A stretch of DNA of 64,000 bases from an uncultured Gammaproteobacteria bacterium (lineage in GTDB: Bacteria > Patescibacteriota > Microgenomatia > CAZETR01 > Amesbacteraceae), in assembly GCA_964356225.1 (NCBI GenBank), contig CAYHGA010000001.1:104220-168219 (forward strand). The letters are read 5' to 3'. The notes beneath the pieces were generated by a model. The model ran no database searches. It was not told the DNA's origin and saw only the letters and a program-made list of their open reading frames with translations. Numbering within the stretch: position 1 is the stretch's first letter; each line of letters starts with the position of its first letter. A program made the position numbers and the translations under genes. Positions 35,318 to 55,865 of this stretch are shown piece after piece.

Positions 35318-35796
35318 TATACATTTGGCGCGGAGGTAAATTCGGTGGGCTCAAATTCATAGTTGATAGGCGCCTCTAAAGGCAGACCGCTAAAGGGTTT
35401 AACCATGACAGACATTTGATACTTTGTGTTGTAGATCCAATCTGACTTGGGGATAACGTGTAAAAGGGAGCGGTCTTTAGCGTCGATTTCGACAGAGATT
35501 TTAGTTTTCGGTTGAATATCGACCATGGCTGTACCGATCCTTAGTTCTTGGTTGAAAACGAAGGTAATAGCTGTATTGCGGAAAGCGACAGGCGATTTAC
35601 CCGGGAGAGGAAAGACGCTAACCAGTTCGAGTTTAATTGGCGCGGGGGTGGGGAAAACATTAACATTCTCAGATGGTTTTTTGGATTTAGATAACAAATA
35701 AACCATTGAAACGACAGAGATTGCCAGCAATACCAAAAACATACGGGCCCCCCTGTTTTTTAATAGATCGGACATTGCTTCTTGTTTTACTGGCAT
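35314..35796 (-). CDS. small membrane-anchored beta-rich protein (first gene of the T4SS-like cluster)
   Basis: N-terminal TM helix (MFLVLLAISVVSMVYLL) and a beta-rich ectodomain. ATGA-type coupling to the upstream giant gene. Confidence 0.35.
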   Translation of the reverse strand: MPVKQEAMSDLLKNRGARMFLVLLAISVVSMVYLLSKSKKPSENVNVFPTPAPIKLELVSVFPLPGKSPVAFRNTAITFVFNQELRIGTAMVDIQPKTKISVEIDAKDRSLLHVIPKSDWIYNTKYQMSVMVKPFSGLPLEAPINYEFEPTEFTSAPNVY

Positions 35797-38045
35797 AAGT
35801 AATTTTCAGGTTTTACAAAAAGGCCACTAACCTGCATTTCTAAGTGCAGATGGGTATTGCCTCCTTGATTATATAATTTTCCAACGGGCTTGCCAGAGTC
35901 GAGTGATTTCGTAAAATCAACTGTTGTTTGATCCATGTGCGTAAACGTTATGACATGTTTTCCAGTCTGGTCCCGATATAAGTAACTGAATCCGGAGCCT
36001 GGATTTGGAAACGACGTAGTGGGGTTCCAGGTGGTTGGGTTGCCATCAACTGACGGCGCGTAAACCCAAGCGTTGTCTCCTGGAAAAAGATCGGCGGCGT
36101 ATCCATAAAAAGGACACTTGGAAGAGGGGTGGGTTTGCTGACATTTGTTTCCGGTATTGCTGTTGGGAGCCTGACAGCCGATTAAAGTTTGCGGCAGGGG
36201 ATATGTGCAATCTTGGTGGGCGACATTGTTCCAATAATAGTTTGATCCGTGGCCGCCAGCGATGTCGTTTTCGTGCGAAGAATCGTATGATTTTTGTTTA
36301 TATACGCCATTCAAAATGGGACAAGAAATATTACGGGGGGCGTCTTGGGGTGGTTGGTTGTTTGTGGAAAACGGATTAGGGGGGACGACGAGGGCGGAGG
36401 AGTTGATGATGAAGAGAATTAGGGCGATGCCGATGGGAATACTTATGATAATGATGATTATGGGGGCGGCGATTTCGGTGGCCACAAGTCCGACCATGGC
36501 GGTGGAAGCGGTGGCAATGGCGTTACCGGTCTTGGTAAGAGCCCCGGCAACTCCGCCGGATCCTTGAATAGCAGCGCCGGCGACAGCCCCCGTAAGTCCG
36601 AGTGCGGAAGTGCCAATAAGACCCAGCCCGCCGATGACTCCACCGACTATTCCCGCCAGTCCCAGGAAAATAGCCGGAAGATATTCTTTGATGAGGATCT
36701 TGGCTTTCGACCAGAGAGTTTTGACGGCTTCGATGGCAAGGGGAATAAGAAGGGAAAGACCTAGTGTTTCCGGAGCCAAAGCGGCTCCGGCGGCGGCTTC
36801 GGCCCCGACAGCGGCAGCTTCGGTGGCAGCGGCGGTGGCGGCTTTGGTTCCTAAGGAAGTGAGAACTTTTTTACCGACTTCGGAGGCGGCGAATTTTTCC
36901 CAGGCGGCAGAGGCCACTTTGTCTTGAATTTTGTTTTTGCCGAAACCGACGAGACAATTGAACCAACCAGATTGATCTGGGGATAGAGGTTGGCCGGGGA
37001 CATGGTCCGATTGAGATGAATAAAACTGGAGCGGGCGGGTGAAATAAACAGTGCGGTAGTTGAGATATTCAATTACTTGATTTGAAAAGTAGATTTGAAC
37101 TCCGGAAACGCGCTGGGAATGCTGCGGGGGAGAGTCTGAGAGCCGGTGAGGTGTGAAAGAGGCAATGGTATTGATAAGGGGGACGAAGTGGGTGGCAAAT
37201 TGGGAAGCGAGGGACAGGGCCTGCGGGGTGGGATAACCGGCCTTGAGAAATTGGTTGTGAAGAGACAGGGTTAGGGGGGGGGTGGTAGGGGAGGGAGCTT
37301 GAATTTGGGAAATGCTGGATGCAGCAGTTTGGGGAATATTGAGAGGTTTACCAATGGCTTCTGAAGCTAGAGTTAGACGCTCAAGGAGTTGTTGGATTTG
37401 GGGGACCGTAACCTGGGGGGTGGCGATTTTGAGAACAGTGACGGCGGCGGCGGCCGGCTGGGGAAGAACTTGAATGGTTTGAAGATAAATATTTTCAATG
37501 ACGGGGTGGGAAACTTCGGGAATAAGGGGAGCTAAAATTTCAGGGAGAACAATGCTGGCAAGTTTTTCGATGGTGCCGACGGGTTCAAGAATAAGGCTGG
37601 GGGCAATATCGGGGATAGATTTTTCCAGCCCGGGAACATTTTGGGAAAGTTTTTTTAGAAGATCCAGGTGTTTTTGATAACTTTCCGCCCCAATTTTTTT
37701 TATGGCTTCGTCTTGACGGGCAAGACGCTCCTGATCTCTTTTTTCTTCTAAAAGCCTGACGTTTTCCTGGAGGTTGTCTATGGCCATGTTACTGGTGGCG
37801 TCGAGGTTGAGGGTACGAATTACATCAATGAGGGAAACAATACGGTCAAGCAGGTCTGGGTTGTTTTTTATTTGGTTGATGATGTTTTCGGCCGCGGCCC
37901 CCTTTTTTTGACGAATGGTGCTTTCGTATGCAGTCCACAGGCTGGTTTCGGTTTGGGCCAGAAACTGATAATCGTGGGGATGGAGACCGACGAGGCGAAG
38001 GGTTTCTTGAAGAACGGCGGCTTGTTTTTGAGCGAGATCGGCCAT
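35787..38045 (-). CDS. large membrane protein with C-terminal M23-like peptidase domain (T4SS-associated cell-wall hydrolase candidate)
   Basis: Helical/coiled-coil N-terminal half. Central Gly/Ala-rich multi-TM block. The C-terminus carries HENDIAGGHG and GNTHLHLEMQ motifs, which are LytM-like HxxxD and HxH. Confidence 0.45.
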   Translation of the reverse strand: MADLAQKQAAVLQETLRLVGLHPHDYQFLAQTETSLWTAYESTIRQKKGAAAENIINQIKNNPDLLDRIVSLIDVIRTLNLDATSNMAIDNLQENVRLLEEKRDQERLARQDEAIKKIGAESYQKHLDLLKKLSQNVPGLEKSIPDIAPSLILEPVGTIEKLASIVLPEILAPLIPEVSHPVIENIYLQTIQVLPQPAAAAVTVLKIATPQVTVPQIQQLLERLTLASEAIGKPLNIPQTAASSISQIQAPSPTTPPLTLSLHNQFLKAGYPTPQALSLASQFATHFVPLINTIASFTPHRLSDSPPQHSQRVSGVQIYFSNQVIEYLNYRTVYFTRPLQFYSSQSDHVPGQPLSPDQSGWFNCLVGFGKNKIQDKVASAAWEKFAASEVGKKVLTSLGTKAATAAATEAAAVGAEAAAGAALAPETLGLSLLIPLAIEAVKTLWSKAKILIKEYLPAIFLGLAGIVGGVIGGLGLIGTSALGLTGAVAGAAIQGSGGVAGALTKTGNAIATASTAMVGLVATEIAAPIIIIIISIPIGIALILFIINSSALVVPPNPFSTNNQPPQDAPRNISCPILNGVYKQKSYDSSHENDIAGGHGSNYYWNNVAHQDCTYPLPQTLIGCQAPNSNTGNKCQQTHPSSKCPFYGYAADLFPGDNAWVYAPSVDGNPTTWNPTTSFPNPGSGFSYLYRDQTGKHVITFTHMDQTTVDFTKSLDSGKPVGKLYNQGGNTHLHLEMQVSGLFVKPENYLCQ

Positions 38046-40792: not shown

Positions 40793-41623
40793 CTATGAAC
40801 TAACTAACCGTGAACTTTCAAGTTGGGCTTTGATGACTATGGGGGAAATAATTTTATTTTCGGCTTGGAGAGTGAGGGGGGAAAATTGTAGGCCCTCCTT
40901 CTCGGCTATTAGAGTGTAGGTTCCTTGGGGTAGTGGGGTAGCAGTCATAAACTGGCCGAGTTTGTTGGAGCGGAGAGCCCGGACAGGAACACCTGCGGCA
41001 TCGGATAATTCTAAAATTACTCCTTCTAAGTACGATCCGGCGGAATCAAGAACTTGGCCAGTGAGAAGGTTGGGGTAGTCGGGAGAGGGAATTGAGTTAT
41101 TGGTTACTTGGTTACTTGGTTCATGGTTCATAGCGGCCGGAGGTTTGATGACTGGTGTTTGGTATTCAGTATTCAATATTCGGTGTTCGGTTGAGGGTTG
41201 AATGGCCGAGAAGGCCAGGTTGGGGTGGGAGAAGATTTGGGAGAAACGAGCAAAAAGCTGGCCTTCGATTACGTCAAGAGTAGTTTTTTTAGTTATTTGG
41301 TTAGTTGGTTCATGGTTCATGGTAGCCGGGGGTTGGGAAGTTTCGGACCAGTGAAATTCTGTGGGAGAGTAGATGGCTTTGATAAAAGCCATGATCCATT
41401 GGGAAAAAGGGCGGCCGGAGACGGGAACAAAAGCCAACATGATACCCATTAAAACCGACAGGGCCATGACGGGCCATTTAATGAAAAAAGGGAGGGGAAG
41501 GCGGTATAAAACCGCAGCAACGGCAATGCCGCCGGCTAATTGGAAAAATTGCTTGAGGGTCATGTCACCCACGAGGTGAAATTCGTATGAAGAAATATTT
41601 TGTGGTACAGGGTGCTGATCCAT
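40793..41623 (-). CDS. membrane protein with C-terminal carboxypeptidase-regulatory-like beta domain
   Basis: Two or three N-terminal TM helices. Two in-frame ATGAACCATGAACC-type micro-repeat patches (MNHEPTNQ, MNHEPSNQ). The C-terminal Ig-like GQVLDSAGSYLEGVILELSDAAGVPV region. Confidence 0.35.
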   Translation of the reverse strand: MDQHPVPQNISSYEFHLVGDMTLKQFFQLAGGIAVAAVLYRLPLPFFIKWPVMALSVLMGIMLAFVPVSGRPFSQWIMAFIKAIYSPTEFHWSETSQPPATMNHEPTNQITKKTTLDVIEGQLFARFSQIFSHPNLAFSAIQPSTEHRILNTEYQTPVIKPPAAMNHEPSNQVTNNSIPSPDYPNLLTGQVLDSAGSYLEGVILELSDAAGVPVRALRSNKLGQFMTATPLPQGTYTLIAEKEGLQFSPLTLQAENKIISPIVIKAQLESSRLVSS

Positions 41624-41986: not shown

Positions 41987-42004
41987 GGCTTTTTCACACA
42001 AAAG
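41987..42004. repeat. 18-bp direct repeat GGCTTTTTCACACAAAAG, copy 1, upstream of mntA
   Basis: An identical 18-mer recurs at 42884-42901 immediately after the hepT stop. Both copies lie upstream of a TTGTAG...TATAAT-like promoter. Confidence 0.55.
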
Positions 42005-42031
42005 TTTTGTAGCCGATGGTATAATTTTATT

Positions 42032-42926: not shown

Positions 42927-45410
42927 ATGGCAGATCCTCCAACTGAGACCCCACATCCGGAAGCGGACGGTATCGATCCTGGGGTGTTGGCGTTTGCTCG
43001 GATGTTAATGGCGGCTGGCCAGTCTGGGGTTGGGGGCGAGTTTAGTGGCCCAGTTGATCCGTTGCACCCAGAAAAAGGGATGGCTAGGTATAGGATGTCG
43101 GAGCTGGAAATGGACTTATATAACGAAAAGGACTCGGATAAATTGAAGGCTGCAATAAGAAGGGGAATAGATATTTTGGATGGGATTCCAGACGCATTAC
43201 ACACGGGAGATACTCCTTTGATTATGAGCAGTTTTATTAATCCGCAAGTTAAACCACTTCAAAATACTGATTACGGTTTGTGGGTGGTTATTCATAGCAG
43301 AGTAGCAAAAGCTGCCGCTGACTTGAGAACTAGAGCTGAAAGGGCGGGGGTGAAGGTGGAGCATGAAACCGCAGAACTGATGAGGCAGGATATGGAGACG
43401 GCAAAGGCAGAAAAAGAAGATCCGCGGTATAAAGATCCGCTAATTTGGTTGTACTTGAAGAGGAAAGAGGAGAGTGTGGCTAGGGCGGCGGACGTCGAAC
43501 AAATTAGTGTGCAGAAGTATGAGGAAAAACATCCAGAAACTCTGGATCCGGAGATTGCTTTAATTAGAGAAGGAATTTGGGCAGAGTTTCAGGCGAGAGA
43601 ACGGCTACACAACGCGTGGGTGGACCGGATGACCACGACTGGTTCAAGTGGTAACCAACGGGGGGAAGCCGCGAGTTTATTTGTGGACCCGAACCACACC
43701 GACATTAAAGGTTCAGACTGGATCTTGTTATTTAGGGACCCGGTTCAAACAGAACATGAAGATGAGGCGATGAGGGCAATGGTAGATGTGGCGTTGGGTC
43801 AAGAGATGTTGTGGAAAAATAAAAAAACTCCCGGAGATTTAAGTGTGGACAAGAAAGAAATGTGGCAGGTGATGCTTGAAAGGCGGATACAAAAAAACCC
43901 AGATGTTTTAAAAGATTTAAAAGAATTATTGAAAAGGCCAGGATTTGAAAGTAAGACCTTACAACAAACAAAAGAGGCTTTGAAGCAAAAGATAAGTTTG
44001 TATGGAGATTTGAAAAAAGCGTATGACAGGGAGCTAGAAGCTGTTTCAAAAAAGATGGACCCAAGACACGGAAAACTGGCGGAAGCGATGGTACAAATGG
44101 CCGGGACTACGCCTAGCAAGTGGACTACCTTGGGACAGGGTGAAAGCAATTTGTTTGTGAGTGACGTCCCGGAATTTGATTTGGGTGAAAGAACGGGAAC
44201 TTGGATGCCGAGAATGGAAACGACTCTGGCAGAATATACCAGGCTGTACAAATATTTTGAGTGGAAGAATCCGTATCCAGACAACTTTAAGACATCAGAA
44301 GTGTTTGGGGAGTGGTTTAACTACGTGCTTTCTAGGGCGAAAGGAGACGTGCGAGCGGTGTATTTGGCCTGGAGAAAGTTTCAGTTGTGGGAGGTCGTCT
44401 CGAGGCCAGAGATCGGGTCTGTGAGCGACGAAGAAAGAGGGCCCAATATAGGGGACCCGACGATGGTGGGCGATATTGCGGCGTGGCATTATGGTTTTGA
44501 AAAAAAAAGGGAAAAAGAGTTTGGCCGGATCTTACGGTCTGACGGGACACATAAGGACTTGAGAGGTGAGAGTGGAGTAGTGGGGTCGCAGACGAGATAT
44601 GCAGCAGGACCGCCGGTGACAATTGACCACATTAATGTGTTGGGAGTGCCGTTTTTGGATCATGCCACAGGAACTATGAAGGGAAAACAAGGGAAGAGAA
44701 GTTTGTGGGAACTGTGGTACGAGAAAGGGACGGGATTAAAAGATTTACCCTGGATGGACATAGAAGATCCTAAGGACTGGGTGGGCGTGGACCAGGAGGT
44801 GGCACCCCACAGCTTTAATGGATGGTTATATCAGAGGTTTAATGCGGCGACAGTCATGGGATGGTTGACAAAGTGGTCGGTAACGGTGCCAGATCTGCTG
44901 AAAGTGGGCGATGATGGAAAGTTGGTTATGGAGAAGGTGGTTAAGGCGTTTGATAAGACATTTGGAGATATGGAACACGATGCGTTTAAGAGAGCTAAAA
45001 AAAGATTAGAAGAAGGGGATAGGTGGAATCAATTTGAGCCGTTTACGGTTGAGAATATGGAAAATCCCAAGCTAAGAGGAAAAATCGACCCAAGGGCGAT
45101 TGCAGTAATGGGATGGATAACCCAAAGACACCCTGACGGGTCGGGGAGAACTTCGGGGGATGATAGTAATAGACCCCTCCCAGAATATTTAAGATTTGTT
45201 CCGGGTGATTCGGAAAAGAACAACATTGGTAGAGGGTTGTCTTCAGCTTTTCAAGACTCAACAGTTGATTTACTCAGAGCCTGTTTATTTCACGGGTTTC
45301 TGGATAAAAATACCGTGGTTGAATTGATTAAATATTGTCATCTGGGAGAGGGAGCTGAAATGGAGGAGGCGAGGAATATTTACAAGAGCTTGGGTGTGGT
45401 GAAAAAATAA
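42927..45410 (+). CDS. large soluble protein of unknown function (827 aa) inside the T4SS-like cluster
   Basis: Long uninterrupted ORF with no TM segment, Walker motif or HUH motif that I can see. Charged and helical. Confidence 0.4.
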   Translation: MADPPTETPHPEADGIDPGVLAFARMLMAAGQSGVGGEFSGPVDPLHPEKGMARYRMSELEMDLYNEKDSDKLKAAIRRGIDILDGIPDALHTGDTPLIMSSFINPQVKPLQNTDYGLWVVIHSRVAKAAADLRTRAERAGVKVEHETAELMRQDMETAKAEKEDPRYKDPLIWLYLKRKEESVARAADVEQISVQKYEEKHPETLDPEIALIREGIWAEFQARERLHNAWVDRMTTTGSSGNQRGEAASLFVDPNHTDIKGSDWILLFRDPVQTEHEDEAMRAMVDVALGQEMLWKNKKTPGDLSVDKKEMWQVMLERRIQKNPDVLKDLKELLKRPGFESKTLQQTKEALKQKISLYGDLKKAYDRELEAVSKKMDPRHGKLAEAMVQMAGTTPSKWTTLGQGESNLFVSDVPEFDLGERTGTWMPRMETTLAEYTRLYKYFEWKNPYPDNFKTSEVFGEWFNYVLSRAKGDVRAVYLAWRKFQLWEVVSRPEIGSVSDEERGPNIGDPTMVGDIAAWHYGFEKKREKEFGRILRSDGTHKDLRGESGVVGSQTRYAAGPPVTIDHINVLGVPFLDHATGTMKGKQGKRSLWELWYEKGTGLKDLPWMDIEDPKDWVGVDQEVAPHSFNGWLYQRFNAATVMGWLTKWSVTVPDLLKVGDDGKLVMEKVVKAFDKTFGDMEHDAFKRAKKRLEEGDRWNQFEPFTVENMENPKLRGKIDPRAIAVMGWITQRHPDGSGRTSGDDSNRPLPEYLRFVPGDSEKNNIGRGLSSAFQDSTVDLLRACLFHGFLDKNTVVELIKYCHLGEGAEMEEARNIYKSLGVVKK

Positions 45411-45420: not shown

Positions 45421-47211
45421 TTATCCCCTTCTTATTTTTCCGCTTAGACTGTCCACAAAGTCTGAATAGCCTTTGCCGAGTCTGCCGGCAGGGATAAACA
45501 CGCCAGGTTTGGATGGGTCTGGAATCATTAACCCAGAGCGAATACCTATTTGGGTACCTACATATGATGCTCCAGTACCGGCGCCCTCTCTGAATGGCAT
45601 GGTGGCTTCTCCGAATGCTGCCCCATACTTAAAGGCGGGAATCTTGAGGGCGTCACGGATCATATCTGCAATCTTGGGGGTGAGAGAAAAAATTACGAAT
45701 CCCGTGCCTAGAGATATTAAAACACTAATTTCTCCTGAACCGCCCATATAGGGGAGAGATAGATTTATTCCACCTAAGTCCCAAAAAGACTTAAGCCCAA
45801 GCATATTGTTTAAAAAAATATTTCCTGACAAGATATTTTGGAGCAGGAACATAATGGGTACGACCGCAAAAACAGAAGCGTTGGCGATTAAATTTCGGAG
45901 CCATGGCCCGAATCCCTGTTGGCCAGGAACGAGATCAAGCATGATTTGGAGGGGGGCTATAACTATTTGAAGGACGATCATTACATAGGCCTTGATAAGC
46001 ATCCAGAGTATTTTCCAGAGAATGATCAAGAAATATATAAAAATTATTGCAATGATGACGGCCCCCAACAATAGACTGCCCCCGGCCGTGAAACCAGCTA
46101 GGGCTATGGAAAATATACCTACTATTAACAAGGAAAAGAACAGGGTGGGAAGGGTTTGAACTGCTGCATAGAGAGCAAAGGGAATGTTGGTAGTAATGTT
46201 TATAGTTCCAGGGAGATTGGTTGTCAGTTGATTTAGACCAAGCATGCCAATAAAGGCCACAATAATCACATAAACAAGGTCAATGACAAAGCCGGCGATG
46301 GCGAAGGAGAAAGTGACTAAAAGCATAGTGATGATGAGCTTGGGGATCATGGTTTGGAGAGAGACGACGGTTTGGGGATTGATTTTGACCCGGAACATAA
46401 TTAGGAAACCAGAGGCGACTAGAAGGATAACCATGACCAGATAGGCCATGTTGCGGGAAGCGGTCCAGAGAGCGCGGACGGCGGAGCCGGAATTGCCGCC
46501 CAAACCACTGAAGCCGTATCCACCGGACTGGGCATAGGCGGGCTGGACGCCAGTGCCAAGGTCAAATAGGCGGGTGGCCATATATTTGATTTCGCCGATA
46601 CCAGAGGCGGGAGGGTTAGAGTAGAGAGCAGAAATGCCGCCGGCGAAAAGACCGGCGGGGCCGAGCTTGGCATAATCTTGGATGGTGGGGAGTTGGCCAG
46701 AGACAGCATCCTTGATAACTTTTTCAATGGCAGTAATAAAATCGAAAAAATCTGTAGCCGTATGAATATTGGCAGCGGGGTTTAACATAGTGGCGATGCT
46801 ATTGATGATCCAGTTAATTTGAGCGTAGGTGTAACGTTCGCCAAAGATATCCGATTCGTTGGTAGGATCTAAAACTTTTTTGGAAAATTGAGAGGGGTTT
46901 TGACTATACCATGGTCCGTCGGTCTGGTTCTCAAAAAGTTTAGAAATTGCCTGGCAAGTTTGTAATGACATCCCTGGGGGAAGAACGGCACAAAAATCGG
47001 CGGAGGCGGGAGGTGGAGCGGTGGAACAGTCGGAAGCTGGAGAACAGCAAGCAAGGGGATTGCTCGTGCCACACGTGACACCGCCGGAAATTGAACAAGT
47101 TCCCCCCGTGACATTAATCGTTCCACAGGCGGCAAAAGTGGGGGTAGCGGATGAGAGCAGGAGAGTAAAAGAGTAGAAGAGTGTAAGTAAAAACAGGGCA
47201 GATTTTTTCAT
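45421..47211 (-). CDS. TrbL/VirB6-like polytopic membrane protein with Cys-rich secreted N-terminal module
   Basis: Signal peptide, then CGT...C..SGG..CG..NPLACCSP..DCS, then at least 6 TM helices with Gly-rich loops. Confidence 0.45.
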   Translation of the reverse strand: MKKSALFLLTLFYSFTLLLSSATPTFAACGTINVTGGTCSISGGVTCGTSNPLACCSPASDCSTAPPPASADFCAVLPPGMSLQTCQAISKLFENQTDGPWYSQNPSQFSKKVLDPTNESDIFGERYTYAQINWIINSIATMLNPAANIHTATDFFDFITAIEKVIKDAVSGQLPTIQDYAKLGPAGLFAGGISALYSNPPASGIGEIKYMATRLFDLGTGVQPAYAQSGGYGFSGLGGNSGSAVRALWTASRNMAYLVMVILLVASGFLIMFRVKINPQTVVSLQTMIPKLIITMLLVTFSFAIAGFVIDLVYVIIVAFIGMLGLNQLTTNLPGTINITTNIPFALYAAVQTLPTLFFSLLIVGIFSIALAGFTAGGSLLLGAVIIAIIFIYFLIILWKILWMLIKAYVMIVLQIVIAPLQIMLDLVPGQQGFGPWLRNLIANASVFAVVPIMFLLQNILSGNIFLNNMLGLKSFWDLGGINLSLPYMGGSGEISVLISLGTGFVIFSLTPKIADMIRDALKIPAFKYGAAFGEATMPFREGAGTGASYVGTQIGIRSGLMIPDPSKPGVFIPAGRLGKGYSDFVDSLSGKIRRG

Positions 47212-47242: not shown

Positions 47243-49162
47243 TTATTGGGCCAGACTGGCGGATTTGATGATGAGCTGGAGGGGGGCGGTGTTTTTTTTG
47301 ACAACCGAGCTGTATACCTGATCACCCAATCCTTCCACTTGTTGATCGTTGGCAGGATCACGGAAGACGGACATGGTATATTCGCCGGCGGTGTCTTCCA
47401 GAGATGAGAAAGGAATGTTTTGAAATAACTGTTTCCACCAATCACCATTTTTAACATAAACGGGGGTGCCCTTGTTGGGATCGAAATCGTCTAGACGTTT
47501 TTTGAAGACGGCAGGGTCGGAACAGGGTTTGGCAGACGTACCCAGAGCGTCATTGCAGCCTACAATTGTGTTGTGAACGTCCTGTTGTCTGGATTCGATG
47601 ACGACGTTTTTGAGAGTGGTGGCCAAGTCGAAAGGGAGAAGTTTGCGCAGGGGGCCGGAATAGTTGACTACGCGGCTGATAGCGGCGGGGTTATTGGAAT
47701 CAATGGGCAGCTGGTCGCCGATTTGGGGAGTGCCGGTGAGGTACCAGGACAAATATTCGTTGACTTTTTGGGCGTCGGTGAGGGTGGTGTCCTGGGTGTT
47801 ACTTAAAACGCCTAAATTGGCGTGAGAGAGATCGACGGTAACGTCAAAAGCTGACGAGCGCCAGCAGGTGACGGTTCCACCATTTTGGAGCATGTTTTTG
47901 AAGTCTCTTTTTTCTTGGTCCGATGTTCCGAATTCGCTGGGATAACAAACGGTATGAGCAAAACCCTTTGTTGTTCTCCTTTCGTATAACCCGTTTTTGC
48001 CATAGGGATCAAAGCGTTCAATTGCCGATGGCGTCAGCGATGTGCCACAAGCAAAAGTATTAAATTTCTTTTCGGAAGTAAGCGGAGCTTCGGGAACGGA
48101 GCGGGAGATTAGGGGATCGCAAGGAGAGCCGGGATATGGGCGCAGAGGATGATATTCAGGGTCGGCAGGATTACCACTACAGGGATAATATTTGAGGGGG
48201 TTAAACCCTTCTTCTAATGGGCCTTTTTTCTGGGGGAGAGGAGGACCAGTGGGAATTTCATCAAACTTATAACCAACTTCACCAAGATAAAAGGGCTTAC
48301 CAAGCTGATTAGATTGATCTTGGGCTTGGGACGCAAGGGACTTTTCCGAGGGATTATAGTAGTGAGCAGAAGTAAGGTCAATGGACGAAGAATTATTACT
48401 GTTTTTAAAGTCACCATTGCCTGGGCTGTCGCCTAAAGTAGTATTTTCGTTCGATTTTTGGCCGATACTGACTTTGGCATCGGAATCGATACGTTTTATT
48501 TGTTGGGCAACATCGTTAGCCCAAAGTTTGTAAGGTCCACGACAAGCGTCAATACCACTACAATGCGGCTCGTTGGCGAGTTCATAGCCAAAGAGCGACG
48601 GATTTCCTTTCAATTTACTAACGACGGATTTTATATATGGAAGATAAGCCGTTTTATAGTCGGAAAGATACCAAGATGTGGGATCGGATCTGATATCACC
48701 AGGGAGAATATCCCCACTACTGTTACTGTAATCTGCGAGAACGACGATGGTTTTGACACCATATTTTTCGGCAGAGTCCAATACTAATTTTGGGTCTCCC
48801 CGGTCGGGACTGCCCCAAACGCGGACAACGGAAACTCCACACTCCTTTGATAAATAAGAAAATGTGTCGTCTGTTTGAGTAGGATGATTGGCCAAACTAT
48901 GAATGTTAACACCGATGAATTTGCCGGAATATTTATCGGCGGCTTGTTTGAGAATGCCACAAACAGGACTTCCTTTGTAAAATGAATAGGGATCGTTTTC
49001 GAAATACTTGTCTTTTGGGCCGGAGTATTGCCAGACAAGAAAACCGGCAGCACCGGAGCCAAACCACTGGTCGAGGTCAGATTGTAAATCGTCGAGTGGA
49101 CCGGCCAAAACGGCGGGAGCCGTAATTAAAATTATGCACAAAAATAGTAAAAGTTTTTTCAT
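47243..49162 (-). CDS. secreted glycoside hydrolase family 5 enzyme
   Basis: Signal peptide MKKLLLFLCIILITAPAVLA. GH5 acid/base motif ELANEPHC and nucleotide-side nucleophile motif YLGEVGY. A long extra C-terminal domain follows. Confidence 0.55.
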   Translation of the reverse strand: MKKLLLFLCIILITAPAVLAGPLDDLQSDLDQWFGSGAAGFLVWQYSGPKDKYFENDPYSFYKGSPVCGILKQAADKYSGKFIGVNIHSLANHPTQTDDTFSYLSKECGVSVVRVWGSPDRGDPKLVLDSAEKYGVKTIVVLADYSNSSGDILPGDIRSDPTSWYLSDYKTAYLPYIKSVVSKLKGNPSLFGYELANEPHCSGIDACRGPYKLWANDVAQQIKRIDSDAKVSIGQKSNENTTLGDSPGNGDFKNSNNSSSIDLTSAHYYNPSEKSLASQAQDQSNQLGKPFYLGEVGYKFDEIPTGPPLPQKKGPLEEGFNPLKYYPCSGNPADPEYHPLRPYPGSPCDPLISRSVPEAPLTSEKKFNTFACGTSLTPSAIERFDPYGKNGLYERRTTKGFAHTVCYPSEFGTSDQEKRDFKNMLQNGGTVTCWRSSAFDVTVDLSHANLGVLSNTQDTTLTDAQKVNEYLSWYLTGTPQIGDQLPIDSNNPAAISRVVNYSGPLRKLLPFDLATTLKNVVIESRQQDVHNTIVGCNDALGTSAKPCSDPAVFKKRLDDFDPNKGTPVYVKNGDWWKQLFQNIPFSSLEDTAGEYTMSVFRDPANDQQVEGLGDQVYSSVVKKNTAPLQLIIKSASLAQ

Positions 49163-51330
49163 GGTGAAACGACACATGAGGCGATATTCAAAACGCTTTG
49201 TTGATAACAAGTGGAAGGATTGGCGACACAAGATGGCCGGGGTGGATATTTGGGGTCGGGATGTTTGGGATCTTCACAATAACCAAGGTATTGTCTGGCG
49301 GCTGTAACAATGTCTGAATTATTCCAATAGCAAGAGGTAGAAGGACCTTGGTTAGTATTGAGCACATAACCAATACATTCAGGAATAGAGTAGCTGGCGG
49401 CTCCACCACGTTCTTGACCAATTTTTTTAGCTGCTGCAAAAGTGGAGTCTAATAGATTACAAATATTGGGGGTACGACCATCGGACACTCCTGCTTCAAC
49501 GACAGCATTGGAATACGAGGACCACGTGCTAGGCAAGAATTGCCAGGGACCTTTAGCGCCGGAACTGCTAATATTACTACCATCACAATTAGTTACTTGA
49601 CAGTTTGGGCCACTGACAGCAAGAACTTTGGATTCATCCCAACCCCATGAAGGGTTAAGGCCTCCCTCATTATAAAATACGCCAACTAGAACAGAGACGG
49701 GAACTTTATAGAATGAGGCAGCTGATTCAAAAATATTTTTCATTGATAATGAAGGAAAAGATATCGAGCAAGTTTGGCATGTAGGGTCGATAATTGGCAG
49801 GGTGGGGAGTGTTGGAGTGCAGGCATTTTGATTGTTGGGAGGAGTAGTAGAAAAACCCAGGGGCCGGAGGGTTTTTTGCAGGCCCTGCAGGAAATATTCA
49901 TACAGACTGCCTAGATGGGGAATATAGATAGTGGGCGTGGCAGAGCCATTTCCGGCCTGAATATTTACTCTGCTACCTTCCTGGTTTACTCCGGTTGCCT
50001 CAGCTAAAAAACTAGCCTGGGAAGGGATTTCCTTAAACTCTTTGGGTAAATTCTTGGGAAAGATTCTTTTTAAGACCGATTGTGATCCTACTACCAGCGA
50101 ATCGTAAATATATTCTATAAGGGGAGTTTTGGTATACACCACGGCCCGGCCCTTGGTAGGATAATCGTTACCAGCGCGGGTGGCGCATTTGTAATAAACA
50201 TCCTCAGTTCCGATTAAGTTAGGGACGACCGTGACTTGCGGAGTCAAAGAATAATAACCATTCCCCTCATATTCCGAACAACATTTGGTGCCGGACCGCC
50301 GTTCTGTCTCGGATATATTGTAATTGTCTTCTTTACATCCGTCCGGGTGGGGAGCGGTTTCATAGGTATATTTTTGGGTATAAGTCAGACTGGATACAAT
50401 TGTGGGGCCCAGGAGATCGTCTCCGGGGTTGGCGCGGGTATCGGCGATACTGCAAAAACCGGAGGCTTTGTAAGGAAGATTGGGGTCGTTGAAAGAATAG
50501 AGAGGATCGGGAGCGGGGGCATTTACTTTCAAGGAAGAATTATTTTTGTCAGACACGTATTGGGTGTCGTCGTCCAGCCCTTGATGAAGCTGAATGCGGG
50601 TGGTAACGGCGGCGGGATTATCAAGAGAAGCTGATTGGGGAGCGGGGGGCTCGGCGTTTTTATTGAATGAGCCGGGAGCGGGATTGAAAATAGACTGGAG
50701 GAGAGTGGACAGGGCGGAGATATTTCTGAGCTGAGGAAACCAGAGGCGGGATTCGCCGGCGCCACTCCTGGCGATATTGGTGCAGAAGCCATATGGAGGG
50801 GTAACTGAAGGAAGAGAGGGAGAGCAATCATTGGGTTTGGGGGGAATTCCTGTTTGACTGCAAGAGTTTTTTGAACCACAACAAAAGACATTGTCGGAAC
50901 AAACTTTGACAGTGTTTATACCAGGAGAACCAAAAGTTAGTCCGTTAAAGGTGAACGGGCCGGAAGTCTGGGTTTCGATTTGGCCTTTGATGGGGGGGGT
51001 GGGGAGGGAGCTGGCCCCTTGGGCAAAATTGGCACCGTAACAGACCCAAAAATTTTGATTGCCGTCGATACCATACGCGCACCAGGGAATAATTTCGGGG
51101 GAAGTGCCGCAAATAGGGGATTTGAGAGTGTCGTAGGCCAAAGTTTCTTCTTTGGTGTCGCAGTACATTTGGATTCCCTGAAACTGGGCCGGAAATGGGG
51201 ATGTGCCGGTTTTTTGACAACGGCAGAGATCTTTTTGAGGATCATTACACCAGCAAGCCGCCCCCGCCGGAGGCGGGGCGGCAGAGCCCAGAAGGAAGAG
51301 AAAAGTGCTCAGGGCAAGAAATTTCTTCAC
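49159..51330 (-). CDS. secreted Cys-rich protein with C-terminal lytic transglycosylase (SLT-like) domain
   Basis: Signal peptide. N-terminal CWCNDPQKDLCRCQ. The C-terminal FYNEGGLNPS...SSGAKGPWQFLPSTW resembles the SLT E...S...GxMQ..P.TW motifs. Confidence 0.45.
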   Translation of the reverse strand: MKKFLALSTFLFLLGSAAPPPAGAACWCNDPQKDLCRCQKTGTSPFPAQFQGIQMYCDTKEETLAYDTLKSPICGTSPEIIPWCAYGIDGNQNFWVCYGANFAQGASSLPTPPIKGQIETQTSGPFTFNGLTFGSPGINTVKVCSDNVFCCGSKNSCSQTGIPPKPNDCSPSLPSVTPPYGFCTNIARSGAGESRLWFPQLRNISALSTLLQSIFNPAPGSFNKNAEPPAPQSASLDNPAAVTTRIQLHQGLDDDTQYVSDKNNSSLKVNAPAPDPLYSFNDPNLPYKASGFCSIADTRANPGDDLLGPTIVSSLTYTQKYTYETAPHPDGCKEDNYNISETERRSGTKCCSEYEGNGYYSLTPQVTVVPNLIGTEDVYYKCATRAGNDYPTKGRAVVYTKTPLIEYIYDSLVVGSQSVLKRIFPKNLPKEFKEIPSQASFLAEATGVNQEGSRVNIQAGNGSATPTIYIPHLGSLYEYFLQGLQKTLRPLGFSTTPPNNQNACTPTLPTLPIIDPTCQTCSISFPSLSMKNIFESAASFYKVPVSVLVGVFYNEGGLNPSWGWDESKVLAVSGPNCQVTNCDGSNISSSGAKGPWQFLPSTWSSYSNAVVEAGVSDGRTPNICNLLDSTFAAAKKIGQERGGAASYSIPECIGYVLNTNQGPSTSCYWNNSDIVTAARQYLGYCEDPKHPDPKYPPRPSCVANPSTCYQQSVLNIASCVVSP

Positions 51331-51339: not shown

Positions 51340-51627
51340 CTAGCAGACGGGGCCGGGGAGGCAGATGGAGAACATGGAGAAATTCAGTCCAAGGAAATTC
51401 CCCAGTAAGTTTAAGATAATCCAGGCAGATAAAACCAAGACCAGGCCACCGATGGCGTAGGTGAGAGTTTTTTGAGCTTTGGCGGCGCCTTCTTTGTCTC
51501 CACCGGCAGTTAAAAACCCAAAACCGCCCACAATCAACATTACTAAGACCGCAATTCCGGCTAAGGTCAAAGCACCGGAGACCACGGATGAAAAGACGGT
51601 TTCGAGATTTTGAATAGTGGCGGGCAT
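51340..51627 (-). CDS. pilin-like small 2-TM protein (VirB2/TrbC-like candidate), paralog 8 (promoter-distal; the array is minus-strand)
   Basis: 95 aa, two TM helices. The family motif is AGGDKEGAAKAQKTLTYAIGGLVLVLSAWII. Confidence 0.5.
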   Translation of the reverse strand: MPATIQNLETVFSSVVSGALTLAGIAVLVMLIVGGFGFLTAGGDKEGAAKAQKTLTYAIGGLVLVLSAWIILNLLGNFLGLNFSMFSICLPGPVC

Positions 51628-51704
51628 GTTTTTATTTTAACACTTCTCATCAAAACCAAATTGTCCCGCTTGCGGCGGGACAATTTAACGTCAACCCTAA
51701 GCAA

Positions 51705-52118
51705 CTATTGGGTAGTAATTGAGGGAATTACGAGGTTTAGAATACTGATGCCGAATATGCTATCGATAAGGAACGCAATGGCGTAGGTAGAAAAGACAAT
51801 CGCAAGGCCCAATAGGGCGGCCGTAATACGCTTGCGAGCTTTTTCGGTCCCTTCTTTGTCGCCGCCGGCCATAATCCATTGGACTCCTCCTATTAAGAGA
51901 AAGAAGAAGGCGACTAAACCTGCGCCCATTAGCACAAGGTTAATGCTGAGGCGAAGGATGTTTTGGGCATTAAACGTTCCCTCAGTGCCGATTGTCTGCC
52001 CTATTCCAGACTTAGGGATTAAGTCTATATTTTCTGCAAGGGCTGTGGTTGGTGATACGGTGAGCATTGTTGCTAGAGCAGAACCGTATTTGATGGCGTT
52101 TTTAATTTTGTTTGTCAA
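51705..52118 (-). CDS. pilin-like small 2-TM protein, paralog 7
   Basis: 137 aa. Contains MAGGDKEGTEKARKRITAALLGLAIVFSTYAI. Confidence 0.5.
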   Translation of the reverse strand: MTNKIKNAIKYGSALATMLTVSPTTALAENIDLIPKSGIGQTIGTEGTFNAQNILRLSINLVLMGAGLVAFFFLLIGGVQWIMAGGDKEGTEKARKRITAALLGLAIVFSTYAIAFLIDSIFGISILNLVIPSITTQ

Positions 52119-52133
52119 AGATGCTCACCTCCT

Positions 52134-52472
52134 TTACTGGATGACAGGAATTGTAAATTTAGTAATAGAAACACCAAATAATGTTTCAACTAAGTAGATT
52201 ATAGCAAAGATGGAGAAGACAATTGCAAGACCTATTAAAGCAGCGGTGAGACGTTTGGAGGCGGATTGGGTGCGTTCTTTGTCTCCTCCGGCGGTGATAT
52301 ATTCTATTCCGCCCCAGAGGAGCATAAAAAAGAAAATAATGCCGGCGGCTCCCAAAGCTAGAGTAATAAAATTGGTGAGAAAGAGCTGGAGGATGTCGAT
52401 GCCGGAACTATAACCAACGCTAGTATTGATTGCGGGGTTTTTAATGACGAAACCTTGGGCAAGTATTCTCAT
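52134..52472 (-). CDS. pilin-like small 2-TM protein, paralog 6
   Basis: 112 aa. Contains TAGGDKERTQSASKRLTAALIGLAIVFSIFAI. Confidence 0.5.
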   Translation of the reverse strand: MRILAQGFVIKNPAINTSVGYSSGIDILQLFLTNFITLALGAAGIIFFFMLLWGGIEYITAGGDKERTQSASKRLTAALIGLAIVFSIFAIIYLVETLFGVSITKFTIPVIQ

Positions 52473-52909
52473 CTTCGTGGAGTGCCACCGCCTCCAGTAC
52501 TACCGGGAATGTTACAAGTAAAGGTTGTGGTTCCGATGGTATTGGAAAAAAGGTCTCCAAATGGACAAAGGATGTTTATTCCGAAGATTAATCCTATGAT
52601 TCCAATTAGGGCGTAGGAAAATACGACTACAAACAGTCCTAAAATAGCATTCACGATTCTTTTTTGGGCGTTTTGCAGGGCTTGTTTTTCTCCTCCACCC
52701 GCTAACCACTGAAAGGCTCCGGCAAATATTTGAATGATAAACCAGACTCCGGCCGCAACAGTGAGAACACCGATTCCCGTGGAAAGAGTGGAGACAAAAA
52801 GGGCAAAGGGCTCTGTTCCTCCTTTGGTCAGGGTCTTGGTAAAATCTCCCAGGGGCCCCACGCCCTCAAAAGTTCCTAAAGGAGCGTCGGCTAAGAATTT
52901 CATGGGCAT
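52469..52909 (-). CDS. pilin-like small 2-TM protein, paralog 5
   Basis: 146 aa. Contains LAGGGEKQALQNAQKRIVNAILGLFVVVFSYAL. Confidence 0.5.
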   Translation of the reverse strand: MPMKFLADAPLGTFEGVGPLGDFTKTLTKGGTEPFALFVSTLSTGIGVLTVAAGVWFIIQIFAGAFQWLAGGGEKQALQNAQKRIVNAILGLFVVVFSYALIGIIGLIFGINILCPFGDLFSNTIGTTTFTCNIPGSTGGGGTPRR

Positions 52910-53256
52910 GATCCGGGCCCGTAAATAACGGGGGAGATAATGGCGGTGGCATCGCCAAAAATTAAATAGCCAAAGATTCCTGCAAGAACAAATGAGCCGG
53001 CGACAAAAGTCAGACCGAGGAGAGATTGGGTGAACTTGCCAAAAGCCTTACCCATGGCTTTGGCATCGTCACCGGCGGACATAAATCCGTAACCGGCGGC
53101 AATGAAATTCCAAAAAGCATATAGGCCGGCCAGGACGATGACCGTTTTAAGCAGGCCATTGCTTAGAGTAATCAATCCAGATCCACATTCACTACCTTTT
53201 AGGGGTGAATTTAATGTTGCAAACGGGTCATAAATTTTACCGAATGGGGAAATCAT
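52900..53256 (-). CDS. pilin-like small 2-TM protein, paralog 4
   Basis: 118 aa. Contains MSAGDDAKAMGKAFGKFTQSLLGLTFVAGSFVL. Confidence 0.5.
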   Translation of the reverse strand: MISPFGKIYDPFATLNSPLKGSECGSGLITLSNGLLKTVIVLAGLYAFWNFIAAGYGFMSAGDDAKAMGKAFGKFTQSLLGLTFVAGSFVLAGIFGYLIFGDATAIISPVIYGPGSCP

Positions 53257-53597
53257 AGTCTTATGTTAAAAAAGTCGATGCCGGTAATGACCCCGACTGC
53301 TTGGAGTATAAAATAAGCGGAGATGACAAGCAAGAATCCGATAACGGAAAATGTGATAGTATTTTTTGCTTGAGCTGCGGCTTTGGCGTCATCTCTGCCG
53401 GCTGACGAAATCATGGAAAATCCGGCGCCAAGCAGTAAAAACAAAAATATGACTCCGGCGCCAATGAGAGCGTTGGGGAGAAGGGAAGTGATAAGAGTAC
53501 CGAGATTGGCGTTGGTCCCGCCCGCAATGCCTGCGGCTTGAGGGGAATTTGTAAAAAACTGTTCATTAATGTCTACTTGGGATAATAATTTGGTCAT
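53253..53597 (-). CDS. pilin-like small 2-TM protein, paralog 3
   Basis: 114 aa. Contains SSAGRDDAKAAAQAKNTITFSVIGFLLVISAYFI. Confidence 0.5.
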   Translation of the reverse strand: MTKLLSQVDINEQFFTNSPQAAGIAGGTNANLGTLITSLLPNALIGAGVIFLFLLLGAGFSMISSAGRDDAKAAAQAKNTITFSVIGFLLVISAYFILQAVGVITGIDFFNIRL

Positions 53598-53899
53598 AAG
53601 ATTTCGATGCCAAAGATGGTTTGTATAACCTGAATTATAAAGTAAGCGGAAATGACAACTAATAAACCAATAAGAGCATTGACAAGTTCTTTAGAGGCGC
53701 TCTGGATTTTGTTTTGATCACCGGCGTTGGTGAGGTAGGTGTATCCGGCGGAAATAAGACGAACGAAGAAAAATAAACCGGAGAGGGCGATGGCAAAAGT
53801 AAGAATGCGGGCTACATAATATCCAAGAAACACATCTGGGGTAAGAAGATTTAGGGGACCAGGTTGGTTAATGCCAGTGATTTGGGCGAGTTGTTTCAT
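53594..53899 (-). CDS. pilin-like small 2-TM protein, paralog 2
   Basis: 101 aa. Contains TNAGDQNKIQSASKELVNALIGLLVVISAYFI. Confidence 0.5.
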   Translation of the reverse strand: MKQLAQITGINQPGPLNLLTPDVFLGYYVARILTFAIALSGLFFFVRLISAGYTYLTNAGDQNKIQSASKELVNALIGLLVVISAYFIIQVIQTIFGIEIL

Positions 53900-54639
53900 A
53901 GGTTGAGACCAGGATTTCCTACGAAGCCGGGTAAATTAAGGATTTTTACTCCAATAAAGTTTAACAGAACGAGGCTTAATGCAATAATGATGAGGCCGGC
54001 GAGGGCGGACATGAGCAGTTCGCGGGCGGCTTGAACCTTTTTCGGGTCGCCACTGGCGGTGGTCATTTGAAAGCCGGCTAAGACGATCATCAAAAAGGCA
54101 ATACCTCCGCCAACCCCTACTCCCCAACCTAAGAGTTGGGAAACCAGCTGTTTGGGATCTCCGGCCATCAAACAACCAATGGCAGTAGAGACTCCAAGAT
54201 TATCTGTGCCACAAAGAGCGCTTGAGCTGGCTGCGGGGGGATTGATGAGAGAAACACACACTCCGCTGCTGCAATTTCCGAAACTGCAGGTGTTTCCGGG
54301 ACAACAAGTTTGTCCTACATTACCGCAAGCTGCACAGTGAATTGTATTGTCGCAGTTCAGGTTGTTGAAGCAGCGAAAACCGCCAGTATATGAACCGCAA
54401 CAAGGATCTCCGACTTTATCACAAGTAGTGGGGGGGGTAGTGGGGGCTGGGATTTTACAATGGATTGTACTATCGCACTCGCTTGCTGGTGGATTGCAAT
54501 ACAAAATACTAGTTATAGAACCACAACAGGCATCGCCTACAGCGCTGCAGTTGGTGGCGAGGGAGGGGGACGGCCGGAGGCCGGAATAAACACCAATAAG
54601 TACCAAGGCCGAAATAAATATTAATAATTTACCGTTCAC
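53896..54639 (-). CDS. pilin-like protein with N-terminal triple Cys-rich module, paralog 1
   Basis: 247 aa with a signal peptide. It has three repeats of GDxCCGS...C.N...C..TIHC, then the family 2-TM core (TASGDPKKVQAARELLMSALAGLIIIALSL). Confidence 0.5.
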   Translation of the reverse strand: MNGKLLIFISALVLIGVYSGLRPSPSLATNCSAVGDACCGSITSILYCNPPASECDSTIHCKIPAPTTPPTTCDKVGDPCCGSYTGGFRCFNNLNCDNTIHCAACGNVGQTCCPGNTCSFGNCSSGVCVSLINPPAASSSALCGTDNLGVSTAIGCLMAGDPKQLVSQLLGWGVGVGGGIAFLMIVLAGFQMTTASGDPKKVQAARELLMSALAGLIIIALSLVLLNFIGVKILNLPGFVGNPGLNL

Positions 54640-54649: not shown

Positions 54650-55210
54650 TTAGCACAATTTTTGCAGCCAGAGTTTTTTCAGGCGGGAGAATTGATGGGG
54701 GTTGAGATTGAGTTCGGGGACGGAGGTTTGAGAGTTGAAAAGGCTTATCACACCGGTGGGGATTTGAGACCAGTCAAGAGATGGAAGTAAGAGGAGGCTG
54801 ATAATGTCAATTAAGTCTTTGTGGCCTTTGCCGCTGCCTTGACGGGCGCGGTAAGCGGTGAGCTTGAGGGCGATGAGAGTTTCAGGCGGGGGGACGGTGA
54901 AACCGTCAACAATGACGGTCCGGTCAATGTCGGGGCCCAGCTGGGAGTAGTGGGGAACGTAAACGTCAATTTGGACTTCGTCCCGGGCGATCTCGTATTT
55001 TTTGAGGCGCTCGTTTTTGGTTAGGGGAAAGTCGTAGCGAAGTTTTTCTAAAGTATCGAATTTGACTAACAAATCAATGTCTTTGGATTTGAGCTGGTGG
55101 GTGTAGAGCCAGACTGCCCAGCCGCCAATTAGAATAAATTGGTATTTTTTGGCCAGCTGTTGTAAAAGTTCCCAGCTCTTGGTGGTGACTTGGTCACGGT
55201 AATAGTTCAT
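54650..55210 (-). CDS. AbiEii/AbiGii-like nucleotidyltransferase (putative type IV TA toxin)
   Basis: FILIGGWAVWLYTHQLKSKDIDLLV matches the GG...R.S.DIDL NTase pattern of AbiEii toxins. It overlaps the upstream wHTH gene by 17 bp. Confidence 0.4.
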   Translation of the reverse strand: MNYYRDQVTTKSWELLQQLAKKYQFILIGGWAVWLYTHQLKSKDIDLLVKFDTLEKLRYDFPLTKNERLKKYEIARDEVQIDVYVPHYSQLGPDIDRTVIVDGFTVPPPETLIALKLTAYRARQGSGKGHKDLIDIISLLLLPSLDWSQIPTGVISLFNSQTSVPELNLNPHQFSRLKKLWLQKLC

Positions 55211-55796: not shown

Positions 55797-55865
55797 ATAA
55801 ATATCGGTTGAATTCGATAATACTCGAATCCGGGGAATTTGTCAAGATGATGGTAAGATAAAAAG

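Follow-up and report, generated by a model that had tools for sequence, protein, structure and literature searches.

Why would a bacterium keep, side by side on its chromosome, eight different genes for what appears to be a single kind of small pilin-like protein? The question is raised by a 64,000-nt stretch of contig CAYHGA010000001.1 (hereafter the window), on the minus strand of which eight consecutive open reading frames (ORFs) at positions 51340-54639 run in the same direction and encode proteins of 247, 101, 114, 118, 146 (144), 112, 137 (120) and 95 amino acids (aa), referred to below as pilins or copies 1 to 8. A preliminary description had recognised these eight small ORFs of 95-247 aa, all of which were found again here, had likened their products to conjugative pilins, and had suggested either antigenic variation of a surface filament or a heteropolymeric pilus. 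According to the analysis presented below, the eight genes are probably the pilin array of a chromosomal MPF-FATA-like type IV secretion system (T4SS), that is, a set of fixed and non-redundant VirB2-like hairpins which would be assembled into a filament or conduit. Arrays of this kind have already been published for Patescibacterial genomes, and the present one is ordinary for its group; the window does not reveal a new kind of system, and it is the comparison with its relatives that narrows the models.

The eight proteins share one design. A multiple alignment of their cores contains four invariant columns and yields the consensus ..AG..FF..L..GGF...TAGGDK...Q.A.K.LT.AL.GL..V.S.Y.I, with the invariant columns in register, and the inter-helix motif noted earlier is thus positional rather than compositional. 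The literal pattern that had been given for it, [AST][AG]G[DG][DE][KQ], fits three of the eight copies and is too strict as written. Two transmembrane (TM) segments were detected in every copy by means of Kyte-Doolittle windows, copy 1 having an extra N-terminal signal helix. In the AlphaFold2 model of copy 8, calculated from 65 aligned sequences, helices 4-39 and 44-78 are joined by a turn at the conserved AGGD (predicted local distance difference test score, pLDDT, of 79), and the model of copy 1 contains a hairpin of helices 161-193 and 198-233, so that the proposed two-TM hairpin design is borne out in all eight by hydropathy and in copies 1 and 8 by structure prediction as well. Moreover, all eight copies match the Pfam family PF18895 (T4SS_pilin), with E-values ranging from 3e-11 to 0.18, and five of them (copies 1, 2, 3, 6 and 8) lie above its gathering score of 26.6 bits. 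The T4SS_pilin family is very large: of 1.84 billion cluster representatives, a profile of the eight cores matched 72,458 at E<=1e-3 and 12,144 at E<=1e-10. The top matches of the family profile were single polypeptides with 2-17 T4SS_pilin domains (P0100, P0106, P0113, P0121), among them P0100, in which a signal peptide is followed by six hairpin units over 552 aa, and P0113, with 17 matched stretches over 1775 aa.

The distribution of charged residues supports a topology with both termini outside. Counted over 24 proteins, lysine plus arginine amounts to 77 in the inter-helix loop versus 13 in the N-terminal and 12 in the C-terminal flank, and by the positive-inside rule the loop would be cytoplasmic. 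This is in agreement with the signal peptides of copies 1 and 7 and of the copy-8 orthologue from a related locus, L011. Within the window array, signal-peptide-like N-termini are confined to copies 1 and 7. That of pilin 7 ends in ..TALA followed by EN and is included if the gene is read from its TTG codon, an internal ATG (120 aa) being the start in public gene calls; the long N-terminus is kept in the orthologues of L007, L008, L011 and L012, where the endings are ..ALAQ, ..VLAA or ..VFAG. In pilin 8 just 14 residues precede helix 1, and the L011 orthologue has a cleavable-looking signal peptide ahead of a mature N-terminus that is the same as the start of the window copy. Array members without a hydrophobic signal peptide commonly begin with M-x-x-L-[LI]-A-Q (14 of the 43 genes examined), as do pilin 2 (53879-53899), pilin 3 (53577-53597), pilin 6 (52452-52472) and genes of L008, L009, L010 and L012. 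This N-terminus looks like a signal-peptide cleavage region minus the hydrophobic core, has an equivalent, ..AYAQ.., in the linkers of the fused poly-pilin P0106, and may be a processing site.

As to the origin of the window, it is 99.98-100% identical to two public contigs carrying the identical array, which indicates that its sequence, together with the strong GC skew described below, is natural. Altogether the identical array was found on 13 public contigs, including Hainich groundwater assemblies (Hain_H52, 0.2 um fraction). The closest named genome record is that of Ca. Amesbacteria GW2011_GWC2_45_19, with copy 8 80% identical, and the more distant loci are titled Woesebacteria, Microgenomates, Saccharibacteria, Gracilibacteria or Parcubacteria; judged from such sequence relationships, the host is a Patescibacterium (Microgenomatia, close to Ca. 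Amesbacteria). Many contigs with a related locus are titled 'uncultured Gammaproteobacteria bacterium', 'Nevskiaceae bacterium' or 'Candidatus Nanoarchaeia archaeon' (L014-L016, L018-L021, L023, L026, L060), titles which probably reflect mislabelled taxonomy of metagenome-assembled genomes in the source records.

The relatives show that the array is a fixed part of a conserved locus. In them it is preceded by genes for SmpB, a protein of ~620 aa, a DUF5657 protein, a protein of ~215 aa and SpoIID, and followed by one or more large secreted proteins, a multi-TM protein of ~590 aa, a protein of ~750-900 aa on the opposite strand, PrgI and VirB4; the order from SpoIID to VirB4 was found in L008-L012, even with a copy-8 orthologue just 44-62% identical. 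A search with copy 8 found 99 homologues, and in every fetched relative this copy closes the array. When PF18895-like domains were counted by hidden Markov model on stop-to-stop ORFs of 56 related loci, eight turned out to be the commonest array size (20 loci), the others including 9 copies in 4 loci, 10 in 3, 5 in 12 and 4 in 7; many of the 12 five-copy loci are titled Saccharibacteria. Array members are often missing from public gene calls or truncated in them: two pilins of L010 (7340-7810 and 9480-10010) are uncalled, copy 1 of L012 (3990-4810) is truncated because of its non-ATG start, and in L007 and L008 just 2-4 of the 9 and 8 array genes, respectively, are called. Published array counts are, for this reason, probably lower bounds.

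Each position within the array has its own line of descent. In 18 distinct eight-copy genomes, compared as 306 ordered genome pairs, the best match of copies 1 to 8 was the gene at the same position in 100, 79, 91, 100, 94, 88, 100 and 99% of the comparisons, pilin 2 being the least conserved position. Identity at the same position between genomes was 46-65%, versus 33% between paralogues within a genome; the highest paralogue identity in this set was 58%, and the paralogues of the window share 19-36%. No long DNA repeats were detected among the eight copies by a repeat search. From these comparisons, the eight positions represent eight ancient orthogroups kept in a conserved order. The ratio of non-synonymous to synonymous substitution rates (dN/dS) between orthologues, determined against two closer relatives, was 0.06-0.24 for all eight copies, a rough estimate with dS at 0.8-3 or near saturation, and indicates that each copy is under purifying selection. 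This ratio was used instead of that between paralogues, which was set aside as meaningless at ~25% identity with synonymous sites saturated.

The arrangement of the genes points to their joint expression. Stop and start codons overlap by 4 nt (ATGA) at five of the seven junctions, from 1/2 to 5/6, whereas pilins 6 and 7 are separated by a 15-nt gap, with GGAGG 9 nt ahead of the TTG, and pilins 7 and 8 by a 77-nt gap that contains a hairpin; the translational coupling proposed earlier for the whole array can thus be upheld for the first five junctions but not for the last two. Pilin 5 has its longest ORF from 52909 (146 aa), and the ATG at 52903 (144 aa) is the start chosen by public gene calls. 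The stem-loop of the 7/8 gap (51657-51688), possibly a partial terminator or transcript stabiliser, is not kept in L012, where pilins 7 and 8 abut without a gap; it could give copies 1-7 and copy 8 different transcript levels. A sigma-70-like site at 55817-55845 is a candidate for the operon promoter. Copy 1 is the nearest pilin to it, and its designation as promoter-proximal holds with a qualification, since a toxin-antitoxin (TA)-like pair (54650-55796) separates the two.

Variation in the array is concentrated in copy 1. A signal peptide (residues 1-28) is followed there by three six-cysteine repeats (residues 31-61, 73-102 and 105-128; DNA 54256-54549), as the preliminary description had correctly noted for this extended copy, then by a Cys143/Cys156 pair in a loop directly before helix 1, and finally by the PF18895 hairpin (residues ~160-235). 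The GTG start and the signal peptide are conserved in L012. Mean pairwise identity among the aligned homologues is 61% for the hairpin versus 21% for the ectodomain, which, measured from the signal peptide to the TAIGC loop, comprises 48-224 aa and 6-24 cysteines; the hairpin and the TAIGC loop preceding it are highly conserved, and the copy 1 orthologues of L010 and L011 have no repeats at all. In the AlphaFold2 model the pLDDT is 80-87 over the hairpin and 42-54 over the ectodomain, the latter too low to base a fold search on, and a Pfam scan of the cysteine-rich region gave no match. By its sequence, then, copy 1 is a conserved hairpin with a hypervariable cysteine-rich ectodomain, and it makes a candidate determinant of host specificity.

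The resemblance to VirB2/TrbC-type pilins that had been put forward is sustained by the PF18895 matches of all eight copies, by cross-hits to PF04956 (TrbC/VirB2) within the family, and by the PrgI/VirB3-like and VirB4 genes of the surrounding T4SS locus. PF18895 is matched by all 65 of the aligned family members, 11 of which also match PF04956, the second most frequent Pfam family among them, and 3 CagC; P0079, a copy-8 orthologue of 52% identity, scores 28.4 bits on PF04956, the gathering score of which is 27.9. As for the locus, the array lies 11 kb from the VirB4 gene and 10 kb from the PrgI-like gene on the same strand, and the PrgI/VirB3-like, VirB4 and dnaA/dnaN genes are all less than 20 kb away; VirB4 ATPase and PrgI/VirB3-like protein are encoded together, as in MPF-FATA-like T4SSs. 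Like VirB2/TrbC (Agrobacterium VirB2, RP4 TrbC) and CagC of H. pylori, the window copies are small, have two hydrophobic helices, a short basic turn and both termini predicted outside, and their genes adjoin homologues of VirB3/VirB4. They differ in that most of them lack a long cleavable signal peptide, that there are eight distinct paralogues and not one major pilin, that one copy bears a large ectodomain, and that their host, a monoderm, lacks VirB5, VirB7, VirB9 and VirB10. The eight proteins belong, by the profile matches, to PF18895 and not directly to PF04956; that they work like VirB2 we infer from their context. The comparison with Gram-positive conjugative pilin precursors, which had also been drawn, is not apt: VirB2 homologues are generally lacking from Gram-positive T4SSs, the exception noted being that of Patescibacteria (PMC12857230). 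When the profile of the eight proteins was searched against the PDB, the matches were spurious, consisting of designed beta-propeller 'Bagel' proteins, matched through variable N-tails, and a taste receptor, and fold searches gave non-specific matches.

Comparable arrays have been described in this group of bacteria. For 3,035 Patescibacterial genomes, screened with PF04956 and PF18895, Quinonero-Coronel et al. (2025; PMC12102498) give 441 VirB2 arrays, each with 2-11 pilin genes, spread over 383 assemblies; the arrays occur especially in Microgenomatia and Saccharimonadia, have a mean within-array identity of 25%, and belong to T4SS loci near dnaA, mostly without a relaxase. In agreement with this, the window array is tandem, has 19-36% mutual identity, and lies near virB4 and other T4SS genes with dnaA/dnaN adjoining. 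Both the arrays of PMC12102498 and the SEML1_0006-0019 region of Southlakia ML1 (PMC10633639) contain tandem genes of the same PF18895 family near virB4 and PrgI/VirB3 genes, the former likewise with ~25% identity between copies, a chromosomal position near dnaA and no relaxase or type IV coupling protein (T4CP) recognised nearby. Copy number is 8 in the window, versus 6 reported for Southlakia and ~5 in the fetched Saccharibacteria-titled loci; nothing essential differs. A series of predicted pilins is essential in the T4SS cluster of Southlakia epibionticum (Wang et al., 2023; PMC10633639). Besides the T4SS, few machines have been shown to be indispensable to a cultivated Patescibacterium living as an epibiont, and within the T4SS the pilin array stands out as the oddest part, since a pilin is normally absent from T4SSs of the Gram-positive type. 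According to a 2025 review, these VirB2-like pilins have no counterpart in other T4SSs of monoderms and might, it is speculated, form a pilus-like conduit (PMC12857230), and the role of the Patescibacterial T4SS has been described as completely unknown (PMC11665869). The eight conserved orthogroups and the hypervariable ectodomain of copy 1 were not found in the consulted portions of PMC12102498 and PMC10633639; together with purifying selection and the undercounting of arrays by gene callers they are useful but modest, incremental points.

The following course of events would account for these features. The array would be transcribed as one unit, together with the upstream TA pair and the downstream secreted proteins, and copies 1-6 would be translated through ATGA stop-start coupling. 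The hairpins would then enter the cytoplasmic membrane, copies 1 and 7 by means of a signal peptide and the others with short N-tails, so that the Lys/Arg-rich GGDK...K..K turn faces the cytoplasm and the two ends of each protein face outwards. From there, we infer, the VirB4 ATPase machinery would extract them and build one T4SS-associated filament or conduit that crosses the envelope towards the host cell. The eight copies would be fixed, non-redundant subunits of this structure and not alternatives to one another; a heteromeric assembly is favoured by the conserved orthogroups, by purifying selection and by the apparent co-expression. Copy 1 would combine a conserved assembly module with a disulfide-rich, hypervariable ectodomain that probably contacts the host surface, in the manner of an adhesin. 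The other copies might make up the shaft or an initiation complex, much as major and minor pseudopilins do in type II secretion and type IV pili. GspG-H-I-J-K and the type IV pilins are fixed, ordered and co-transcribed sets of divergent paralogues serving one assembly module, in which an abundant shaft subunit is accompanied by several others of low abundance that act in initiation or at the tip. A type IV pilin is built on one N-terminal helix, carries a prepilin-peptidase site and depends on a PilB/GspE ATPase for its assembly; the analogy is a functional one only, with fold and machinery unrelated to those of the window hairpins, and no homology is claimed. In a bolder form, which we offer tentatively, the structure would be obligately heteromeric and of the VirB2 type, with seven shaft or initiation subunits and copy 1 as a host-recognition tip in place of VirB5, and the poly-pilin fusions would represent the same assembly made as one polypeptide. 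If true, it would make the Microgenomatia T4SS, a monoderm system, the first with a heteropolymeric pilus or stalk of the conjugative type.

Several observations weigh against a filament of VirB2-like pilins. None of the eight window proteins matches PF04956 at E<=1, and hhalign comparison of the family with a five-sequence VirB2/TrbC alignment, in which the VirB2 sequence was verified at 100%, was not significant (probability 0.5-0.9%, E 0.06-0.11), as was that with VirB2 alone; the former alignment is collinear (N-tail, TM1, turn, TM2). Copies 7 (25.1 bits), 5 (18.4) and 4 (12.3) are under the PF18895 cut-off. They do align in register and are members of conserved orthogroups of the same arrays, and pilin 4, the most divergent paralogue, nevertheless forms a very well conserved orthogroup (mean orthologue identity 62%). 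The scanned window ORFs, which did not include a few short ones, yielded no recognisable T4CP (VirD4/TcpA), relaxase or VirB8 and no clear VirB6; as regards coupling protein and relaxase this agrees with their published absence from most Patescibacterial loci. If not cleaved, the natural fusions of 2-17 domains are hard to square with free polymerisation; the dN/dS values, as stated above, are rough, and a filament of these proteins has not yet been seen in any Patescibacterium (PMC12857230, PMC11665869).

Some of the same observations would suit another arrangement, in which the hairpins would not leave the membrane but would make up a fixed, hetero-oligomeric component of the T4SS, for example a ring, a stalk base or a lipid-facing collar round a VirB6-like channel, so that 'pilin' would be a misnomer here. 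The fixed number and order of distinct subunits, suggestive of a defined stoichiometry, would fit such a part well, as would the fusions, each unit of which has an even number of TM helices, and the weakness of the hhalign similarity to VirB2; neither VirB5 nor VirB1 was recognised among the scanned window ORFs, and no pilus has been observed (PMC12102498). We nevertheless regard this arrangement, although a serious rival, as rather unlikely: members of the family cross-hit TrbC/VirB2 and CagC, and the decorated termini, predicted to lie outside, and the long ectodomain of copy 1 are what would be expected of surface-exposed subunits. Reviewers in the field favour a pilus-like conduit (PMC12857230), which is opinion and not data.

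Antigenic variation, by which the copies would be interchangeable alternative major pilins that alter antigenicity or host range, as proposed for Bartonella Trw and Anaplasma virB2, fares worse and is improbable. The analogy is drawn in PMC12102498: in these bacteria, too, several VirB2-type genes (Bartonella trwL of the Trw system, Anaplasma phagocytophilum virB2) stand in tandem in or near a T4SS, and the role suggested for them is immune evasion through antigenic variation, or interaction with varied host surfaces. The copies of the window differ from these in being ancient, positionally orthologous and under purifying selection. The Bartonella and Anaplasma arrays are reportedly lineage-specific amplifications under diversifying selection or concerted evolution. 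Low identity between the window paralogues (19-36%), a copy number varying from 4 to 10 between lineages and the hypervariable ectodomain of copy 1 might all be expected of interchangeable pilins. However, the positional orthogroups follow the same order in all 18 genomes, which largely refutes the idea; every copy has a low orthologue dN/dS (0.06-0.24), and the absence of long DNA repeats and a top paralogue identity of 58% leave no sign of recent duplication or gene conversion. Since the copies seem to be co-transcribed and are mostly translationally coupled, they would be expressed together and not switched or used alternately, and what variation there is lies mainly in a single domain of copy 1. 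Orthogroups in conserved order, purifying selection and variability confined to the copy-1 ectodomain thus argue for a multi-subunit assembly. That the ORFs encode unrelated two-TM proteins (holin-like, bacteriocin-immunity-like or spurious), alike in hydrophobic composition only, is refuted by PF18895 E-values down to 3e-11, the in-register motif and invariant columns, the 72,458 profile matches, and orthologues conserved at every position of an array that consistently lies next to T4SS genes, even if sub-threshold Pfam matches to membrane families (DctQ, Cyt_bd_oxida_II, TLC) and the non-specific fold searches show how easily such hairpins cross-match.

Table. Coordinates of the pilin array and of neighbouring features in the window.
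Feature	Position	Strand	Remarks
Pilin 1	53896..54639	-	247 aa, GTG start; PF18895 4.8e-11, 43.0 bits
Pilin 2	53594..53899	-	101 aa; ATGA overlap with pilin 1; PF18895 8.2e-07, 29.4 bits
Pilin 3	53253..53597	-	114 aa; ATGA overlap; PF18895 2.6e-06, 27.9 bits
Pilin 4	52900..53256	-	118 aa; ATGA overlap; PF18895 0.18, 12.3 bits
Pilin 5	52469..52903	-	144 aa from ATG 52903; ATGA overlap; PF18895 0.0023, 18.4 bits
Pilin 6	52134..52472	-	112 aa; ATGA overlap; PF18895 5.5e-09, 36.4 bits
Pilin 7	51705..52118	-	137 aa from TTG; PF18895 1.9e-05, 25.1 bits
Pilin 8	51340..51627	-	95 aa; PF18895 3.2e-11, 43.6 bits; best family-model match
Stem-loop, then U-run	51657..51688	-	In pilin 7/8 gap; minimum free energy -24.7 kcal/mol, z = -3.4
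Best sigma-70-like site	55817..55845	-	TTGACA-17-TATTAT, 11/12, a consensus match only (8 sites versus 5.1 expected in shuffles); divergent SpoIID/array intergenic region
Helix-turn-helix (HTH) protein	55194-55796	-	TA-like pair with 54650-55210
AbiEii/DUF6036-like nucleotidyltransferase	54650-55210	-	TA-like pair between promoter region and pilin 1
Secreted protein, 723 aa, 31 Cys	49159..51330	-	Starts 9 nt past pilin 8
GH5 (cellulase-family) secreted protein	47243..49162	-	PF00150 3.7e-08; 639 aa from public-call start
596-aa protein	45421..47211	-	Signal peptide and ~5 TM helices (hydropathy)
827-aa soluble protein	42927..45410	+	No family match
PrgI (VirB3-like) protein	40793..41623	-	PF12666 6.8e-09; 2 TM helices; C-terminal CarboxypepD_reg-like domain
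VirB4/TraC-like T4SS ATPase, 791 aa	38049..40424	-	PF19044 6e-31, AAA_10, DUF87, TraC_F_IV
752-aa protein	35787..38045	-	2 TM helices; weak M23-peptidase-like C-terminus, PF01551 0.0032, below cut-off
dnaA	32694-34055	+	Origin-proximal context
dnaN	34211-35317	+	Origin-proximal context

Among the remaining genes of the T4SS locus, the 596-aa protein, conserved at its position in L008-L012, qualifies, by topology and position alone, as a candidate for the VirB6/PrgH-like channel subunit, and the 752-aa protein next to VirB4 is possibly a cell-wall hydrolase of the T4SS, as its C-terminus suggests. The position and strand of the 827-aa protein are held by proteins of 753-916 aa in L008-L010. Pfam and PDB searches of the 723-, 827- and 596-aa neighbours gave no match, and a resemblance of the C-terminus of the 723-aa protein to lytic transglycosylases, which these searches do not support, is not claimed.

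The slot past the last pilin (47243-51330 in the window) contains large secreted proteins that differ between genomes, including a 1482-aa GDSL-lipase-like protein in L008 (10284-14732) and unassigned proteins of 730-914 aa in others (slot coordinates 10357-12900 in L009 and 8864-13801 in L011); it looks like a variable slot for hydrolases or effector-like proteins. The slot between SpoIID and the first pilin is occupied in relatives by other TA-type genes, namely a PIN pair, Phd/ParE or ParE (L011 4988-5709, L012 3466-3999, L007 6647-7186), and is empty in L008-L010. A second TA pair of the window (HepT/MNT) is situated inside the T4SS locus at ~41963-42884. In addition, two PF05635 ('23S rRNA-intervening sequence protein') genes on the minus strand, 40421-40783 and 41657-42118, flank the PrgI-like gene, and such genes occur at similar places in L001, L008, L011 and L012.

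The rest of the window is occupied by housekeeping genes, including those for aminoacyl-tRNA synthetases, GroEL, YidC, TsaD, SmpB, tmRNA and tRNAs. Over its whole length (1-64000) the window displays an extreme strand asymmetry, with 18,252 G versus 11,298 C and a GC skew of +0.235 on the plus strand, which is found alike in genes of the plus (+0.30) and minus (+0.20) strands. The cumulative skew rises monotonically and does not turn at dnaA/dnaN (32.7-35.3 kb). A GC skew of this magnitude is shared by the closest relatives (0.21-0.29 in L007, L008, L012 and L013) but not by more distant Microgenomatia (0.02-0.13).

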